Positions 2,183 through 53,194 of a DNA stretch of 58,020 bases are shown here, piece after piece. The notes below the pieces were generated by a model, which saw only the letters and a list, made by a program, of their open reading frames with translations, had not been told where the DNA came from and searched no databases. Position 1 is the stretch's first letter. Each line of letters begins with the position of its first letter. The stretch is from positions 1 through 58,020 of the forward strand of contig CAMDCJ010000001.1 in the NCBI GenBank assembly GCA_945890035.1. Reading direction: 5' to 3'. The translations under genes and the position numbers were made by a program. Origin of the DNA: Rickettsia typhi (lineage in GTDB: Bacteria > Pseudomonadota > Alphaproteobacteria > Rickettsiales > UBA1997).

Positions 2183-2310
2183 AATCCTCGTCGAATTTTA
2201 AGCGCTTACTTCGTTGTTCATCGAACCCTCAAAGCTCAATGTATTAAAATACATTTTCGCTTCTCGTCTCTCGACCGCCTCGTAATCATCTTAAAATTCT
2301 TAGAGGATTT
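2183..2310. repeat. ~128-nt imperfect palindromic element abutting the comM stop codon
   Basis: Left end aaatcctcgtcgaattttaag pairs with right end cttaaaattcttagaggattt. Central hairpin is aatgtatt-aa-aatacatt. The element starts 0-2 nt from the TAA at 2180-2182. Confidence 0.7.
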
Positions 2311-2358
2311 AGGGCACAACTTTTTACTTTTTTAAATTTATTCGTCGAACTTTAAGCG
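2276..2358 (+). repeat. 83-nt perfect direct repeat, copy 1
   Basis: cgcctcgtaatcatcttaaaattcttagaggatttagggcacaactttttacttttttaaatttattcgtcgaactttaagcg is identical to 2664-2746. Similarity continues for about 10 nt on each side with mismatches. Confidence 0.95.
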
Positions 2359-2574
2359 CTTTCGGGAGCCGTGGGGGGTCAAAAAACCCAAGGCATCAAA
2401 GTTTTTGAGGTTACGAGAAAAGTTAAAGAAAAAAAATTCCAAAAGAACGACCTCTTGATTTATTTAAAAGTTTTTAAATTTATCAATTTTTTAGATTAAA
2501 AACAAAATCAAAAAATTGTTTTTGAAAATTTTTTTGCGGATAAACGCTTCATTTTTTTTCAAAAAAAATTCGCG

Positions 2575-2656
2575 ACTGGGACCCGCGTCGCCTTTGGCTC
2601 CTTATTCCGTTATTCGCTAAAAATAGCCGTTTAAACTATTTTTTAAACGCGAAGAA
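2575..2656. repeat. Composite module D+C; its inverted partner is at 2776-2858
   Basis: ctgggacccgcgtcgcctttggctccttattccgt plus ttcgctaaaaatagccgtttaaactattttttaaacgcgaa aligns at roughly 80% identity to the reverse complement of 2776-2858. Confidence 0.75.
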
Positions 2657-2663
2657 CCTCGAA

Positions 2664-2746
2664 CGCCTCGTAATCATCTTAAAATTCTTAGAGGATTTAG
2701 GGCACAACTTTTTACTTTTTTAAATTTATTCGTCGAACTTTAAGCG
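2664..2746 (+). repeat. 83-nt perfect direct repeat, copy 2
   Basis: Character-for-character identical to 2276-2358. Confidence 0.95.
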
Positions 2747-2758
2747 ATTTCGGAATCC

Positions 2759-3187
2759 AGCTCCCCCCTTGAGGGCTCTTCGCGTTTAAAAAATAGCCTA
2801 AATGGCTATTTTTAGCGAAGAGCGGGATAAGGAGCGAAGGCGACGAAATCCCTGGGGCAAATCTTTTTCGAAGAAAAAGATGAAGCGTTTTTCTAAAAAA
2901 AATTCCAAAAAGACAATTTCTTGATTTTAAATTTAATCCAAAATTTATAATTTTTTAAAGAAAAATTGAGTTACTTTTTTAGTTTAAAAGTTAAATCAAG
3001 AAATTGACTTTTTTGAATTTCTTTTATTTTAAAATTCGATATAATCGATAATTCATTGTCTCTGTAGCTTTTCTGACCCCCCACGTCTCCGCGAATTTAA
3101 CTACCGTTAAATCCGCGTAGCCTGCTCTTCGCTAAAAATAGCCGTTTAAACTATTTTTTAAACGCGAAGAGCCCTCAAGGGGGGAGC
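2759..3187. repeat. ~430-nt giant imperfect inverted repeat (composite palindromic element, copy X-i)
   Basis: Both outer arms are a GC hairpin (agctccccccttgaggg.. / ..ccctcaaggggggagct), each interrupted by a 47-nt family-C palindrome (2776-2822, 3125-3171). Inner inverted modules are aaaaaattccaaaaagacaatttcttgatttt (about 2897-2928) and aaatcaagaaattgacttttttgaattt (about 2993-3020). The right arm carries gcttttctgaccccccac (3067-3084) and the hairpin gcgaatttaac-tacc-gttaaatccgc (3091-3116). Confidence 0.8.
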
Positions 3188-3291
3188 TAGAGCCCGCTGA
3201 TGTTGCGAGTGTTTTTGTAAATGTAGGTTTATAAGCCTCTCAAGGGGAGTGGGAGCTATAGAACGTAAGCGTTGCGAGTTTTTTGTATATT
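3183..3291. repeat. Two tandem copies of flank module E, running up to the lpdA stop codon
   Basis: gagctagagcccgctgatgttgcgagtgtttttgtaaatgtaggtttataagcc is followed by gagctatagaacgtaagcgttgcgagttttttgta. Related copies lie at 24691-24800 and 51927-51990. Confidence 0.7.
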
Positions 3292-45105: not shown

Positions 45106-46083
45106 ATGAAAAAAAAAGTTGATAACAAAAAACCAATAAAAAATTCAAAAAATGATGAGAAGTCAAAAAAATCTTTGTTTGATTTATATGAGTTTATGCC
45201 ACAAAAATCAGGGTTTCTCGGTGTTAAAGAAAAATATTTAGAATCAAATGACGATGCCAAAGTAATAGTTATTCCTTTCGGTTTGGAAAAATCGGTGAGC
45301 TATGGCGGTGGCACTAAAAATGGCCCACAAGCCATTATTAAAGCTTCGCATCAAGCCGAATTGTTCGATGAAGAATTTTGGTGTGAACCGTTTCGTCAAT
45401 ATGGCGTTGCAACAATGAAGGCGCAAGAAATAGATTATAGTTCGGTGCCAAAATCGCTTGATCAACTTGAAAAAATTACCTCCGATGTTCTTGAGGCAAA
45501 AAAATTTCCATTAATTTTGGGCGGTGAGCATTCAATTACGGCGGGCTCAATTCGTCCTTTTGTAAAAAAATATAAAGACTTGGCGATTTTGCATTTTGAT
45601 GCTCACGCTGATTTGCGAGATGGTTATGCTGGCGAACATTATTCTCATGCTTCGGCACTGCGTCGGGTTATGGATCATCCGATTTCAACTTTAATTTCTT
45701 GCGGAATCCGCAATATTTCGGCTTCAGAAATCCCTTTTTTAGAAAGTAATTCGAGTCGAATTAAAATGCATTTTGCTAAAGATAAACATGCGTGGGATTA
45801 TAAAAAAATAGTTGAACCTTTAAAGGGCAGAAATGTTTTTTTAACTTTTGATATTGACGGATTTGATTCTGGAATTATGCAGGCTACAGGCACTCCCGAG
45901 CCAGGTGGATTATTATGGTATGATGCCATAAATATTATCAAAGAAGCTTCAAAAATTTGTAATATTGTTGGTGCCGATGTTGTTGAATTGGCGCCTGTCA
46001 AAACCTTACATTCTTGTGATTTTTTGGCCGCCAAATTATGCTATAAAATTTTATCATTTGCCTTAGCTAAACCACAAAAATGA
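45106..46083 (+). CDS. Agmatinase/arginase-family ureohydrolase (SpeB-like) with a Lys-rich N-terminal extension
   Basis: 325 aa with Mn-binding motifs GGEHSIT, HFDAHADLRD and LTFDIDGFD. The first ~25 aa (MKKKVDNKKPIKNSKNDEKSKKS) are low-complexity. Confidence 0.8.
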   Translation: MKKKVDNKKPIKNSKNDEKSKKSLFDLYEFMPQKSGFLGVKEKYLESNDDAKVIVIPFGLEKSVSYGGGTKNGPQAIIKASHQAELFDEEFWCEPFRQYGVATMKAQEIDYSSVPKSLDQLEKITSDVLEAKKFPLILGGEHSITAGSIRPFVKKYKDLAILHFDAHADLRDGYAGEHYSHASALRRVMDHPISTLISCGIRNISASEIPFLESNSSRIKMHFAKDKHAWDYKKIVEPLKGRNVFLTFDIDGFDSGIMQATGTPEPGGLLWYDAINIIKEASKICNIVGADVVELAPVKTLHSCDFLAAKLCYKILSFALAKPQK

Positions 46084-47090
46084 AAGAAAAAAAGAACATT
46101 ATTAATGATATAGAAATTCAGCGAGGCACAAAAGTTCGCATCAATATTGACATGGGTAGAATGCATGATTTTACCGATTTAAAAATGCCAATTGAAGTTG
46201 TGAGTGGAGTAAAAGACGGCCCAACTCTTTTTGTATCCTCAACTATTCATGGCGATGAAATTAATGGCATTGAAATTGTGCGTCGATTGCTTGATTATGT
46301 TAAGGTTGATAAAATATGCGGAACGCTTATCGCCATCCCGATCGTTAATATTTTTGGTTTCAATGATCATTCGCGATATTTGCCCGATCGACGCGATTTA
46401 AATCGTTGTTTTCCAGGAATTAAAAATGGCTCTTTGGCATCGCAACTTGCTTACAAATTCATGCAAGAAATTGTGCTAAAATCCGATTATGGGATTGATA
46501 TTCACAGCGGTTCTTTTCATCGCTCAAATTATCCGCAAGTTCGAACTAATATTGATGAAGAAATTAATCTCGAATTAGCAAAAGTTTTTAATGCGCCCGC
46601 GATTATCAATTCTAATTTACGCGACGGCTCGCTTAGAAGCGCGGGTATGCAAGCTAATATTCCAATAATTTTATATGAAGCTGGCGAAATTTTGCGCTTT
46701 GATGAAAATGCCACAAAGACTGGCTTAAATGGTATTTTAAATGTTATGGAAAAAATTGGCATGATTGCCAAAGCTCCACAAGATGATGCGAAAAAAATAT
46801 TTATTGCGCTTTCAAGTTCTTGGCTTCGCGCGTCACAAAGTGGAATTTTTATTTCCAATATTAAACTTGGTGACATGGTGCAAAAAGGACAAATTATTGG
46901 ATCAATTTCCAATCCTTTTGGCGATAATAAAATCGAAATTCGCGTTAATGAAGATGGTATGGTGATTGGTTTAACAATGATGCCTTTAGTTAATAAGGGC
47001 GATGCTTTACTTCATATTGCTTCACAAAAAAATCAAACCTCAAATGAAGGATTTTTGGTGAATGATAATATCAATTTAACTCTAGATTAA
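46080..47090 (+). CDS. Succinylglutamate desuccinylase/aspartoacylase (AstE/AspA, M14-like zinc hydrolase) family protein
   Basis: 336 aa with the zinc motif STIHGDEINGIE, then DLNRCFPG and GIDIHSG. The ATGA start/stop overlap with the upstream gene suggests translational coupling. Confidence 0.75.
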   Translation: MKEKKNIINDIEIQRGTKVRINIDMGRMHDFTDLKMPIEVVSGVKDGPTLFVSSTIHGDEINGIEIVRRLLDYVKVDKICGTLIAIPIVNIFGFNDHSRYLPDRRDLNRCFPGIKNGSLASQLAYKFMQEIVLKSDYGIDIHSGSFHRSNYPQVRTNIDEEINLELAKVFNAPAIINSNLRDGSLRSAGMQANIPIILYEAGEILRFDENATKTGLNGILNVMEKIGMIAKAPQDDAKKIFIALSSSWLRASQSGIFISNIKLGDMVQKGQIIGSISNPFGDNKIEIRVNEDGMVIGLTMMPLVNKGDALLHIASQKNQTSNEGFLVNDNINLTLD

Positions 47091-47091
47091 A

Positions 47092-47382
47092 AAATACCAC
47101 TTCCACTCTTAAATGATGCGACTGAATTTTGTGGAACTCGTCTTTGCGCGCCTACATTTAGTAGGCTTACGCAGACTCGTCCTTAAATTCAATCGCCTGA
47201 TTTAAGATTGGAAGCGGTATTTCTGAGAGACTAATAAATGATGCGACTGAATTTTGTGGAACTCGTCTTTGCGCGCCTACATTTAGTAGGCTTACGCAGA
47301 CTCGTCCTTAAATTCATTCGCCTCATTTAAGATTGGAAGCGGTATTTCTGAGAGACTAATAAATGATGCGAGGAGAATTTTG
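47092..47382 (+). repeat. Family-A palindromic element duplicated in tandem (125-nt period; 2 full copies plus a partial third)
   Basis: Units 47111-47235 and 47236-47360 differ at only 2 positions (caatcgcctgattt vs cattcgcctcattt). The third unit starts at 47361 (aaatgatgcga..) and then diverges. The array starts 2 nt after the stop at 47088-47090. Confidence 0.92.
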
Positions 47383-47386
47383 CTCA

Positions 47387-47550
47387 ACGCTTCATCTTTT
47401 TCGAAGAAAAAGATGAAGCGTTTATCCGCAAAAAAAATTTTCAAAATGGCAATTTCTTGATTTAACTTTTGAACTAAAAAATCACCAATTTTTGTTTGAA
47501 AAATTTATAAATTTTGTCGATTAAAGTCAAAATCAAAAATTTTCAAAGCA
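47387..47550. repeat. Perfect 16-bp palindrome (family G) followed by the AT-rich inverted modules shared with loci 2400-3030 and 24400-24580
   Basis: acgcttcatctttttc-gaa-gaaaaagatgaagcgt (47387-47421), then ttatccgcaaaaaaaattttcaaaatggcaatttcttgatttaac... . Related sequences are 2861-2935, the reverse complement of 2500-2560, and a degenerate copy at about 470-505. Confidence 0.75.
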
Positions 47551-50564: not shown

Positions 50565-50640
50565 TGGTGCCTAGAGACGGAATCGAACCGCCGACACAAG
50601 GATTTTCAGTCCTTTGCTCTACCGACTGAGCTATCTAGGC
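50565..50640 (-). tRNA. tRNA-Phe (anticodon GAA), CCA encoded
   Basis: The reverse complement is GCCTAGATAGCTCAGTCGGTAGAGCAAAGGACTGAAAATCCTTGTGTCGGCGGTTCGATTCCGTCTCTAGGCACCA. It folds as a 7-bp acceptor, GCTC/GAGC D stem, AAGGA/TCCTT anticodon stem with loop CTGAAAA, and a TTCGATT T loop. Confidence 0.95.
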
Positions 50641-50787
50641 AAATGTTTTAATCATATTAAAAAACTTAGTTTTAAATGCAATTAAATATTTTTTTAAATG
50701 CATTTTTTTTAAAAATTTATGGTCTTGTTAAAAAATTAAACTCTTATAAAATCACAATATTAAAATTTTTTCAATTTAAATAAGTTT

Positions 50788-50931
50788 ATGGAAAATTTGA
50801 ACGATTATTCTTTTTATGTAAACCTTGCCTATTGGCTTTCGGGATTGATATCATTTGTTTATATTGCTAAAATTTTTATTAATTTTTTTACTTTAAAAAA
50901 AACTTTAAATAATGTTCAAAAAAAGTCTTAA
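50788..50931 (+). CDS. ccmD: Heme exporter protein D (CcmD)-like small membrane protein - not in the ORF track (47 aa)
   Basis: My manual translation is MENLNDYSFYVNLAYWLSGLISFVYIAKIFINFFTLKKTLNNVQKKS. It has a single TM helix and a YV..AY motif, as in CcmD. It overlaps the ccmE start by 20 nt, the canonical position. Confidence 0.5.
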   Translation: MENLNDYSFYVNLAYWLSGLISFVYIAKIFINFFTLKKTLNNVQKKS

Positions 50932-51364
50932 TAATAAGCAAAAAAGATCAATTTTTGTGGCAGGAATTTTTTTAATATCAATTATTTCACTAATTTTTAT
51001 TTTAAAAAATTTTCAAAATAATATTGTCTTTTTTTTCTCGCCATCCGAAATTGATAAAATCCGCTCAAGCCTTTCAAGCGTAAGAGTGGGAGGTATGATA
51101 AAAAAAGATTCAATTAAAAAAATCGACGCTTTAACGACCGAGTTTATTATTACTGATTACAAAAATGACTTAGCAATTAATTATCGTGGAATTTTACCCG
51201 ATCTATTTAGAGATGAACAAGGAGTAGTTGCCAAAGGTAAAATAAATATTGTAGAAAATAAATTTTATTCAAGTGAATTATTGGTGAAGCATGATGAAAA
51301 TTATATGCCACCTGAGGTTGCCAAAGATTTAAAAATGAAAATACCGGATTCCACTCTTAAATGA
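50912..51364 (+). CDS. ccmE: Cytochrome c-type biogenesis heme chaperone CcmE
   Basis: 150 aa with an N-terminal anchor, ..VRVGGMI.., GVVAKG and the heme-binding LVKHDENYMPPEV. The last 9 codons and the stop lie inside a family-A repeat. Confidence 0.88.
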   Translation: MFKKSLNNKQKRSIFVAGIFLISIISLIFILKNFQNNIVFFFSPSEIDKIRSSLSSVRVGGMIKKDSIKKIDALTTEFIITDYKNDLAINYRGILPDLFRDEQGVVAKGKINIVENKFYSSELLVKHDENYMPPEVAKDLKMKIPDSTLK

Positions 51365-51471
51365 TGCGACCGAATTTTGCGGATCTCGTCTTTGCGCGCC
51401 TACTTTAGAGTAGGCTTACGCAGACTCGTCCTTAAATTCAATCGCCTGATTTAAGATTGGAAGCGGTATTT
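51338..51471. repeat. Family-A palindromic element, copy A5, overlapping the ccmE 3' end
   Basis: aaataccggattccactcttaaatgatgcgaccgaattt ... aaattcaatcgcctgatttaagattggaagcggtattt. It is about 85-90% identical (by eye) to 23928-24059 and 47092-47223. Confidence 0.85.
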
Positions 51472-51531
51472 ATGAGAAACTAATGAGTTATGTTGTTGAG
51501 TTTAGGCTATTTTTTTAACGCAAATAACCTA

Positions 51532-51557
51532 GATTTAAGATTGGAAGCGGTATTTAT
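51532..51557 (+). repeat. Solo copy of the family-A right terminus
   Basis: gatttaagattggaagcggtatttat is identical to 51448-51473. Confidence 0.9.
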
Positions 51558-51655
51558 CGTGTTACACATTAAATTTGCTAGCGCAAATTTAGCTTTTTAG
51601 TTGAATCGCTCCATGGCGAATAAATCGCCGTATTCGCGATGAGTTCGGTGCCATT

Positions 51656-51931
51656 GCTCCCCCCTTGAGGGGGAGCGGGCTCCGAGGATTTAACGGTAGT
51701 TAAATTCGCGGAGACGTGGGGGGTCAAAAAAGCTACAGCGACAATTAATTATCGATTATATCGAATTTTAAAATAAAAGAAATTCAAGAAATCGTCTTAT
51801 TTAGAATTTTTTTGTTTTAACTTTTCTCGGAACATTAAAACCTTTGGTGCTCTAAGTTTTTGACCCCCCACGATTCTAGAAACTTAACTACCGTTAAGTT
51901 TCTAGAATCTGCTCCCCCTCAAGGGGGGAGC
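51656..51931. repeat. ~276-nt giant imperfect inverted repeat (composite palindromic element, copy X-iv)
   Basis: The left arm is gctccccccttgagggggagc (51656-51676)..ggatttaac-ggta-gttaaattc..gtggggggtcaaaaaagc (51716-51733). The right arm is tttttgaccccccac (about 51857-51871)..attctagaaacttaac-tacc-gttaagtttctagaat (51873-51908)..gctccccctcaaggggggagc (51911-51931). Confidence 0.85.
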
Positions 51932-51990
51932 TATATTCCGTAAGCGTTGTGAGCATTTTTGTAAAATGTAGGGGTATAAGCCCCTTTAGA
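51927..51990. repeat. Flank module E, copy at locus iv
   Basis: ggagctatattccgtaagcgttgtgagcatttttgtaaaatgtaggggtataagcccc aligns with 3183-3291. Confidence 0.7.
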
Positions 51991-52279
51991 AGGACTTGCA
52001 TTAATCCAAATTCTTGGCGATGCGGAGAGGGGTCAGAAAAGCATAGATAATGAACGGTTTCGCATCAATAGTAAAAATTTTCCAAAATAGTTTTTTACAA
52101 AAGCTAATTTCTTGAATCGATTAAAAGCATTCGAATTTTATAACTTTTCAAATCTTTAATATTTCTGAAGCATAAACCTAAAAAGTTTCATAAAAATTCT
52201 TGCACTTTTTAACTTACTAATCAAAATTAAAAATTATTATTAGCCCAATTAAATTTTAAATTTAAATTATAGGTTTCAC

Positions 52280-53194
52280 ATGGAACAAAAAGCCACATTA
52301 GTAAAATTTACCGATAAAAAACTTGGACGCGGACTTTCAGCTTTACTCGGAGAGAGTAAGGTAAAATCACCTTTATTTAACCCAGAAAATCAAGACGTAG
52401 TTGAAAAAATTAGTCTTAAAAAAATTCGCCCCGGTGTTTATCAGCCTCGTCAACATTTTGAAGAAACTGAATTGCAAGATTTGGCCGATTCAATCAAAGA
52501 GCATGGCGTAATTCAGCCCATAATTTTGCGTAAAACCGATGATGATTTTTATGAAATTATCGCCGGAGAGCGCCGTTTCCGTGCTTCAAAAATAGCTAAT
52601 CTTACCGAAATTCCAGCGATTTTTAGAAAATTTTCTGACAATGATGCTCTTGAAATTGCCATTATTGAAAATGTCCAACGCTCTGATTTGTCGCCGACCG
52701 AAGAGGCTCGAGGCTATCAAAGATTGATGAAAGAATTTGCTTATACCCAAGAAATTGTTGCCAAAAAAGTTGGCAAAAGTCGTGCGCACATTGCTAATTT
52801 ATTGCGCTTGCTAACATTACCTGAAAAAGTTCGTGAATATTTGGATAGTAAACAAATTTCCATGGGGCATGCGCGCGCCATAATTAATTCGATCAATCCT
52901 GAAGAATTGGCAAAAAGAATTATTGCCAAAGGTTTGAATGTGCGTGACGCCGAAGAAATTGTGCGTGACGAAAAAATTGAAAAAGCCAAAAGAACGCCAG
53001 TTTTAATTAGAACCGAATCGCGAATTAAATTTATTAATAGCGAACATTTGGTTGCCTTAGAAAATCAAATATCGGAACTGTGTGGAATGGATTGTAAAAT
53101 TTCTTATAATGGCTTCAAAGGTGTCGGCAAAATCATTATGAAATTTGATGAAATTGAAAAAATTCAACAATTGATTACTGGCTTAGAAAAATAG
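52280..53194 (+). CDS. parB: Chromosome partitioning protein ParB
   Basis: 304 aa with KLGRGLSALLGE, the ParB box IIAGERRFRASK and HTH ..IVAKKVGKSRAHIANLLRLL. Confidence 0.9.
   Translation: MEQKATLVKFTDKKLGRGLSALLGESKVKSPLFNPENQDVVEKISLKKIRPGVYQPRQHFEETELQDLADSIKEHGVIQPIILRKTDDDFYEIIAGERRFRASKIANLTEIPAIFRKFSDNDALEIAIIENVQRSDLSPTEEARGYQRLMKEFAYTQEIVAKKVGKSRAHIANLLRLLTLPEKVREYLDSKQISMGHARAIINSINPEELAKRIIAKGLNVRDAEEIVRDEKIEKAKRTPVLIRTESRIKFINSEHLVALENQISELCGMDCKISYNGFKGVGKIIMKFDEIEKIQQLITGLEK

Follow-up and report, generated by a model that had tools for sequence, protein, structure and literature searches.

A family of palindromic hairpins set at gene ends in a freshwater Rickettsiales genome, and the ccmE gene whose stop codon lies inside one of them

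How does a protein-coding gene come to end inside a repeat? The question is raised by ccmE, the gene for the heme chaperone CcmE, on a 58,020-nt stretch of DNA (assembly GCA_945890035.1, contig CAMDCJ010000001.1; hereafter the window, meaning the whole stretch that was analysed), where the last codons and the stop are read through the left arm of a palindromic hairpin repeat, here called family A. The window comes from an uncultured freshwater Rickettsiales bacterium of the family UBA1997 and not from a Rickettsia. An earlier note on this DNA had held that the arm is translated at the end of ccmE, stop included, and that nine repeat-encoded residues had replaced the native tail of the protein. 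The first part stands, with the TGA at 51362-51364 lying inside the arm; the second does not, and only CTT AAA TGA, that is L-K-stop in place of N-stop, is due to the insertion. We regard it as probable that a repeat block entered beside a native tail that already resembled the arm, that it did so by recombination or gene conversion, and that the edit was neutral. The features of the locus are listed below; loci of related metagenome-assembled genomes (MAGs), which are fragmented, are numbered L001 and so on, and alleles of ccmE are called filled or empty according to whether they carry the repeat block.

50912-51364, + strand: ccmE open reading frame (ORF), 150 aa, heme chaperone CcmE (ORF list, Pfam)
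51290-51304, + strand: codons of the HDENY heme-binding motif, intact (direct reading of the sequence)
51338-51355, + strand: codons K-I-P-D-S-T, arm-like, older than the insertion and the outer part of what would be a chimeric left arm (identity with L003, alignment of 26 copies)
51339-51471, + strand: family-A hairpin at ccmE, about 132 nt, arms 51339-51377 and 51434-51471 (inverted repeat, fold)
51356-51567, + strand: inserted block, 211-212 nt relative to empty alleles, with the A core, its right arm, a spacer, a second copy of that arm and a linker (alignment with L003, L001, L006 and L043, all empty, and with L037, filled)
51362-51364, + strand: ccmE stop TGA, its G and A taken from GATGCG of the element (sequence, allele alignment)
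51474-51531, + strand: 58-nt spacer between the right-arm copies, weakly like a module at 2613-2658 and 3128-3173
51532-51557, + strand: solo right arm, 26 nt, an exact copy (100% identity) of the one in family A
51558-51567, + strand: linker CGTGTTACAC, the usual junction of family A with module B
51568-51645, + strand: module B (ATTAAATTTGCTAGCGCAAATTTAGC...), directly on the ccmE stop in empty alleles

The ORF carries the Pfam CcmE domain (PF03100) at residues 38-134 over the full profile (1-99/99), CcmE chains in the PDB align to residues 7-141 with E values down to 4e-20, and a homologue search found 7995 sequences. Both marks of the family, a CcmE domain and an H-x-x-x-Y heme-binding motif, are present: HDENY at 51290-51304 is intact, as the earlier note had read it, lies 16 codons upstream of the last nine codons and is kept in all homologues listed. 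The C-terminus reads ...HDENYMPPEVAKDLKMKIPDSTLK-stop, and the last nine codons, AAA ATA CCG GAT TCC ACT CTT AAA TGA (51338-51364), give K-I-P-D-S-T-L-K-stop. Folding of a 151-nt region over the repeat gave a single hairpin with a minimum free energy of -55.9 kcal/mol, more stable than all 200 shuffled sequences (z = -6.5). To reach the ccmE stop, which is now 24 nt in from the base of this long hairpin, a ribosome must open that base. The junction between ccmE and family A is not an assembly artefact: an exact DNA unitig from an independent lake metagenome spans 51209-51378, and the same fusion is present on five other metagenome contigs.

Searches of the window with right-arm and core motifs returned 4-5 matches, against 0 expected in shuffled sequence, whereas the 26-mer of the ccmE left arm found no second match at up to three mismatches. 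The latter result is due to one extra base in the ccmE copy (CCGGATTCC, versus CCGCTTCC or CCACTTCC in other copies). The claim that the same arm is non-coding elsewhere thus holds for the copies at 23928 and 47092, but the 26-mer is not identical there, differing by a one-base indel; both of these non-coding left arms nevertheless directly abut stop codons.

What did the gene look like before the repeat arrived? Element-free alleles end in ...KMKIPDSTN-stop (L003, allele P0010), ...KIPTSTN-stop (L001, GCA_005787525.1), ...KIPSSN-stop (L006), ...KIPTSNN-stop (L002) and ...KMPTSDN-stop (L043). The DNA of L003, the closest of these, reads ...AAAATGAAAATACCGGATTCCACT AAT TAA ATTTGCTAAAGCAAATTTAGCTTTTTAGTTGAATCGCT and runs straight into module B; it equals the window up to T51355 and is identical again from A51568. 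In L001, L006, L002 and L043 a tail of T/S-S-x-N is likewise followed by TAA, with module B flush on the stop. Because L003 is identical over K-I-P-D-S-T and lacks the element, these codons are older than the insertion, and the protein changed from ...STN-stop to ...STLK-stop, a gain of one residue. The alignment of orthologues that the earlier note had proposed as a check therefore gave, for six of the eight residues, the outcome that it had listed against itself, L003 being nucleotide-identical through codon 148. Replacement of the native tail in one step by a complete family-A element, bringing nine repeat-encoded residues and the stop, would explain why all 26 nt can be aligned both to the left arms at 23928 and 47092 and to the right arm in reverse complement. 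We consider it highly improbable: it is contradicted by the empty alleles, in that KIP(D/S/T)S(T) is already present in element-free orthologues and L003 matches through codon 148, and the outer arm of ccmE is lineage-native, with an extra base absent from other copies.

Filled and empty alleles of ccmE coexist at about 90% identity, a presence/absence polymorphism. In a neighbour-joining tree of the ccmE body the filled alleles (the window and L037-L041) form one clade with 98% bootstrap support, nested among empty alleles, and an outgroup clade has the empty architecture. This bears on the opposite polarity, in which the filled state is ancestral and the empty alleles are deletions of the hairpin interior that left the outer left arm fused to module B. 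Long palindromes are prone to deletion, the empty tails resemble a whole outer arm, similar short sequences (TTCCAC/TTACAC, TTAAAT) flank the insert, and short and long forms exist at another cluster (L027 versus L007 and L016). However, the filled alleles are a single derived clade, all empty alleles, even those about 30% diverged, share one AAT TAA ATTTGC junction, and recombination between the TTAAAT copies predicts CCACTCTTAAATTTGC, whereas CCACTAATTAAATTTGC is observed. We judge this polarity improbable.

The account that we prefer starts from an ancestral ccmE that ended in ...AAA ATA CCG GAT TCC ACT AAT TAA, where module B followed the stop without a gap. Between codon 148 (ACT) and ATTAAATTTGC came a block of 211-212 nt, which destroyed the old TAA, and the frame then ran through CTT AAA TGA into the element. 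The left junction would fall in a stretch of 17 nt over which the native tail (AAATACCGGATTCCACT) was already similar to the outer arm (AAATACCGCTTCCACT). The simplest route of entry would be homologous recombination or gene conversion with another A-B cluster; alternatively, an insertion could have been trimmed by a deletion between two direct copies of the arm. The present left arm would in either case be a chimera, its outer part native and its inner part derived from the element.

Recombination or conversion is suggested by the combination of arm-like native sequence on the left with a standard A-B junction on the right. The native tail of the empty alleles (AAATACCGGATTCCACTAATTAAAT) resembles the whole outer arm (AAATACCGCTTCCACTCTTAAAT), with alignment scores of 13-15 for L001-L003, while all 19,328 background windows score below 14. 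On the other side, the junction GTTACAC-ATTAAATTTGC also follows family A in L009, L010, L011, L012, L017, L018, L029 and L031. That the arm is chimeric is indicated by the extra base together with the lineage-native sequence of the outer arm: in an alignment of 26 copies the extra base (columns 10-11) occurs in ccmE copies only, and the outer arm follows the native allele of its lineage, being CCGGATTCC in the window and L003 and CCATCTTC in L037 and L006. At recJ the empty allele L047 lacks the outer arm (...ATA TAA ATTAAATTTC.., compared with ...ATA TAA ATAACGCGTCCACTC.. in the filled state), so the arm normally travels with the element and ccmE is a special case. The window and L037 were also compared over window positions 50912-52279. 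The ccmE body differs by 5.6% and the 806-nt mosaic 3' of the A hairpin by only about 1.1%; this far lower divergence of the mosaic points to recent recombination or conversion within it. The 61-nt interior of family A is 18% diverged, with paired changes typical of another subfamily. We infer that clean transposition of the block into ccmE is less likely than recombination or conversion.

Several points weigh against this account. The breakpoint cannot be placed within 51355-51362, where native and element sequence are similar (CCACT..TTAAAT), and TTAAAT is found at either side of the insert, at 51357-51362 and at 51569-51574, so that transposition with a short target duplication could also have produced the filled allele. 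The recombination donor of the block was not identified. The ccmE tree is built on about 430 nt and places L003 and L042 with support of 10-32%. We only infer neutrality for CcmE, and the RNA contigs are too fragmentary to show an effect of the hairpin on the transcript.

The empty tail may itself have a history. In a two-step version, the older tail (T/S/D)-S-(T/N)-N-stop would have come from a repeat, an outer-left-arm-like module together with module B that replaced a K-stop ending, and the A core would have arrived later; most of the last six codons would then be repeat-derived, through an old event. Relatives free of the repeat end in ATG CCC AAA TAA (L032), ATG CCT AAA AAA TAA (L034) and ATA AAA CCA TAA (L035), giving ...KMKMPK-stop, ...MPKK-stop and ...KIKP-stop, and these relatives have compact ccmE-parB spacers of 93-190 nt and show no likeness to the arm (score 5). 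The extended tail is present in all five repeat-bearing empty alleles, with module B flush on the stop, and this restriction of the T/S-S-x-N extension to alleles with module B on the stop is what suggests a repeat origin. L002, which has the extended tail, is the 100%-supported sister of the repeat-free L032 (MPK-stop); L002 and L001 share 28 identical tail nucleotides though their genes are about 30% diverged; and an unrelated repeat cluster, L027, contains the 16-mer CCACTAATTAAATTTG again. Set against this, AAAATGCC and TAAATTT already occur in the repeat-free relatives, so that a repeat would have to account for only some 8-10 central nucleotides, and the sequence usually found before module B is GTTACACAT or GCTACGCAT and not that of this tail. 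Divergence of the tail combined with ascertainment could suffice, the element having possibly been captured because the site resembled its arm. We hold the two-step version as a serious but tentative candidate, somewhat short of an even chance.

The last change (N to LK) is probably neutral for CcmE function, as judged from sequence comparison: the tail lies beyond the Pfam domain and the structure-alignable part and is hypervariable among homologues. After ...AKSLK, homologue tails run from 0 to about 17 residues. Among the CcmE clusters listed at 89% identity or above, 13 ended in ...KIP(D/S/Y/E)S(T/N)LK, another 13 in ...K(I/M)P.S(T)N and 9 in ...NFKSFSPARP.

Two further ccmE 3' ends were seen. 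In L042 (2540-2900) ccmE ends in ...KIPDSNLK-stop and has the family-A left arm alone (through GATGCGACCGAATTTATC), joined to a different module (ACAACGTTTCATCTTTTTCTTCGAAAAAGATTCGCGAC...); the downstream genes also differ. The left arm is thus a separable module. In a third kind (L004, 1900-2067; L005, 1825-1936; alleles P0025-P0034), ...AKDL is followed by (T/L)NFKSFSPARP-stop, another hairpin (TTTCTCGC...GCGAGAGA) spans the stop, and a B-like hairpin comes next; no further copies of the hairpin of the FKSFSPARP tail were found in the related DNA examined. At the other end of the gene, a 47-aa ORF with a hydrophobic core (50788-50931, + strand) overlaps the ccmE start by 20 nt; it lies where ccmD would be expected, is called in several related contigs and has no Pfam match.

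If ccmE is a special case, where does family A normally sit? The other copies in the window are the following.

23928-24059, + strand: family-A copy abutting the recJ stop (TAA 23927-23929, two-base overlap with the arm)
47092-47222, + strand: family-A copy 1-2 nt past the stop (47088-47090) of an AstE/AspA-like ORF (46080-47090)
about 47230-47354, + strand: second, tandem family-A unit with a 125-nt period, lacking the outer left arm

The tandem array at 47105-47354 holds about 2.1 units of 125 nt, of which the second and third have no outer left arm, the units being joined through ...GGTATTTCTGAGAGACTAAT followed directly by AAATGATGCGA. At ccmE, the 26-nt pair of right arms (51448-51473 and 51532-51557) flanks the 58-nt spacer; the same layout is found in L037-L039, so the duplication is older than the split of these from the window lineage.

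A scan of genome contigs with the invariant family-A core, GTAGGCTTACGCAGACTCG, matched 25 loci in six freshwater MAGs. These are labelled Rickettsiales bacterium (UBA1997) or uncultured Alphaproteobacteria, and the core matched only MAGs of the UBA1997 type. The consensus hairpin over 26 distinct copies has 44 pairs, 10 of which show compensatory double changes (for example, C-G in 15 copies versus A-U in 8, and A-U in 17 versus G-C in 9), and in L013 both outer arms are wholly replaced and still pair. These covariations indicate that the palindromy of family A is maintained. Its centre consists of two inverted units, each beginning GTAGGC.

The placement of these copies is strict. At about 16 independent loci the left arm begins -4 to +1 nt from the TAA that closes a long ORF running in the same direction; it begins exactly at the CCA end of tRNA-Met in four MAGs, and at the 5' end of a tRNA-Val on the opposite strand in one; in the remaining cases an ORF ends inside the arm. 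Every independent copy has the same orientation and sits flush at a tRNA end or at the 3' end of a co-directional gene. On the right side there is never such contact: at least 108 nt separate the element from the next ORF, whichever way that ORF points. Stops occur in two of the three frames of the arm (TAA at +18, TGA at +22), and several genes make use of the second.

ispDF, L008: arm-coded tail ...NTASTLK-stop
ispDF, L026: arm-coded tail ...NTTSTLK-stop
rlmN, L011: arm-coded tail ...NNTASTLK-stop
trpC, L024: arm-coded tail ...NNASTLK-stop
85-aa ORF, L022: arm-coded tail ...NNTASNLK-stop

These four genes, at five loci, end at the same arm TGA as ccmE, and their Pfam domains stop just before the arm-coded residues. 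The recJ allele L030 (26-160, - strand, and upstream) lacks 4 nt that include the TAA and runs 22 codons into family A to a TAG at +71, giving ...EDAII-TRPLLNDANEFIRSRLCAPTLE-stop. The idea that this repeat family can remodel gene ends is thus borne out, more clearly at ispDF, rlmN, trpC, the small ORF and recJ than at ccmE, from which it was first drawn. Among recJ alleles 93-99% identical, L044 carries family A, L045, L046 and L071 carry another module (TTCTATCATGAAATTTATTATAACGCTTCGTCGC...) flush on a TGA, and L047 has no repeat; such differences after the stop between near-identical alleles indicate fast turnover of modules at this gene end.

We speculate that family A may be a gene-end module, set at the 3' boundary of a cistron or mature tRNA with a fixed arm facing the gene. 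The reading draws on the paired changes that keep the hairpin, the two-frame stops that close ORFs and gene conversion between loci; we rate it as possible, though doubtful. It would imply either a targeting mechanism that recognises gene ends or, in a streamlined epibiotic lineage of Rickettsiales, a selected, transferable 3'-end cassette that could protect mRNA 3' ends, act in termination or be coupled to the termination of translation.

A different view of the placement is that family A is a miniature inverted-repeat transposable element (MITE), moved by a transposase to an AT-rich target (TAAAT, or the position 5' of ATTAAATTT), with selection producing the bias to gene ends; at ccmE, such an insertion would then have undergone deletion between the incoming arm and the arm-like sequence already there. 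Long terminal inverted repeats, a length of about 132 nt and the absence of coding capacity fit this view, as do the presence/absence polymorphism between recJ alleles 93-99% identical and an insertion point immediately 5' of ATTAAATTT at both recJ and ccmE. However, no clear target-site duplication was seen: TTAAAT/TAAAT flanks the element at both ccmE and recJ, but it belongs to the consensus of element and module, and the empty recJ site already reads TAAATTAAAT. No parent insertion sequence (IS) turned up in the fragmented MAGs, in which no transposase search was made. Of 142 TAAAT sites in the window that are non-coding or overlap a stop, only 7 fall on a stop codon, whereas the copies are nearly all at gene ends and in one orientation; a TAAAT target combined with purifying selection fails on this count as the sole cause of the placement. 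We consider a transposase-moved MITE unlikely. A nested insertion, in which a core MITE with a TTAA duplication would sit inside a 38-nt outer palindrome, was not supported, no solo outer palindrome being found in about 250 kb of related DNA.

How does family A compare with known repeats? It is an apparently undescribed hairpin family that resembles repetitive extragenic palindromic (REP) elements, Rickettsia palindromic elements (RPEs) and MITEs, and it behaves most like mosaics of REP and bacterial interspersed mosaic elements (BIMEs) and like clustered, nesting MITEs such as BOX/RUP/SPRITE. REP/BIME (REPIN) elements of enterobacteria and pseudomonads are co-transcribed as hairpins in the 3' untranslated region, and REPs are reported to stabilise upstream mRNA and to affect translation when near a stop codon. 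Family A shares with them an extragenic palindrome in mosaics with other short motifs at gene 3' ends, and its GTAGGC recalls the REP GTAG head, a resemblance only; it differs in being a single 132-nt hairpin of fixed orientation, flush with the stop codon.

RPEs (RPE-1 to RPE-10) are palindromic, non-autonomous elements of about 100-150 nt that are partly translated in frame without destroying the gene (PMC10969869). The parallel with RPEs drawn by the earlier note holds as an analogy only. Family A is palindromic, about 132 nt long, folds into a long hairpin, occurs in a Rickettsiales genome and is partly translated, but RPEs insert inside ORFs, adding an internal peptide of about 30-50 residues, whereas family A lies at gene 3' boundaries, and at most 8 codons of one arm are translated before the built-in stops, the recJ allele with 22 codons being the exception. 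An internal in-frame insertion of the RPE type was absent from the roughly 16 independent loci, where the element lies at or after the stop and ORFs that enter it end at TGA (+22) or TAG (+71). Family A is set apart from RPEs here by position and translation, not by sequence comparison.

MITEs such as Correia/NEMIS, ERIC and the pneumococcal BOX-RUP-SPRITE elements cluster, nest and occasionally fuse in frame with ORFs (PMC10969869). Family A is like them in size, terminal inverted repeats (arms of about 38 nt), a stable hairpin, lack of coding sequence and clustering, but nothing described for MITEs comes near the strictness of its position and orientation, by which the left arm lies on the gene end. 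Integron attC sites (for example, Vibrio VCRs) offer a further likeness, being imperfect palindromes of about 60-140 nt that directly follow a co-oriented ORF and show paired changes. This identity was rejected: the ends of family A, AAATACCGC.. and ..GCGGTATTT(GTTACAC), misfit RYYYAAC and GTTRRRY, GTTACAC failing at the purine positions, and the flanking genes (recJ, ccmE, ispDF, rlmN, trpC and tRNA-Met) stand in conserved synteny, many kb apart, with no cassette arrays. An intrinsic (rho-independent) terminator was likewise rejected, none being found at the element in a scan of 50700-52400, where the right arm ends in ..GGTATTT with three T only.

Beyond family A, the intergenic regions of this bacterium are mosaics of short hairpin modules. 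Four intergenic regions in the window, and MAG loci as well, have family A followed by module B and further shared modules. The window regions 2270-3220, 24340-24730, 47430-47540 and 51484-51965 share further repeat modules, among them GGAG(C/A)CGTGGGGGGTCAAAAAA, CCCCCCTCAAGGGGGGAG hairpins and TTCGCTAAAAATAGCCGTTTAAAC..., forming mosaics downstream of A and B. A scan of the whole window against Rfam 15 at the gathering score returned only the tRNA at 50568-50640, and the element was unmatched even at E ≤ 1; blastn of the element against PLSDB plasmids gave no match. Two sub-threshold Rfam matches, IS605-orfB-I at 24399-24579 (- strand; 38 bits against a gathering score of 94, E 6e-7) and whalefall-1 at 51862-51933 (- strand; 24.5 bits against 37, E 8e-4; not found in the paralogous copy scanned), were set aside as noise, since they fall in other modules amid many generic hairpin matches of the miRNA type. 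Three lake metatranscriptome runs yielded contigs over 51479-51700, two of them locus-specific and exact. None covers the family-A hairpin (51344-51478), and these contigs, being fragmentary and repeat-confounded, cannot show 3' ends; the missing coverage could reflect processing, termination, or poor reverse transcription or assembly.

UBA1997 is a freshwater family of Rickettsiales found as epibionts on cryptophyte algae, and it has been called a "transition-stage" family between free-living and intracellular Rickettsiales; palindromic repeats are unmentioned in that paper (bioRxiv 10.1101/2023.01.31.526412). For this lineage, ccmE provides a clean, dated example of interspersed palindromes editing gene ends. 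An arm-like native tail, whether it arose by chance or by descent, would have served as a landing pad at which recombination moved the stop into a hairpin, and ccmE itself would be little affected by the exchange of ...STN for ...STLK in a hypervariable tail outside the folded domain. The strict gene-end placement is the more striking part, and a simple TAAAT model does not explain it: family A repeatedly supplies C-terminal residues (NTASTLK) and stops to housekeeping genes and lies always flush with gene or tRNA ends. The hairpin modules of UBA1997, apparently undescribed as a set, offer a comparison point for the origin of the in-frame palindromic elements of Rickettsia and a system in which the way such repeats choose or retain their sites can be tested.

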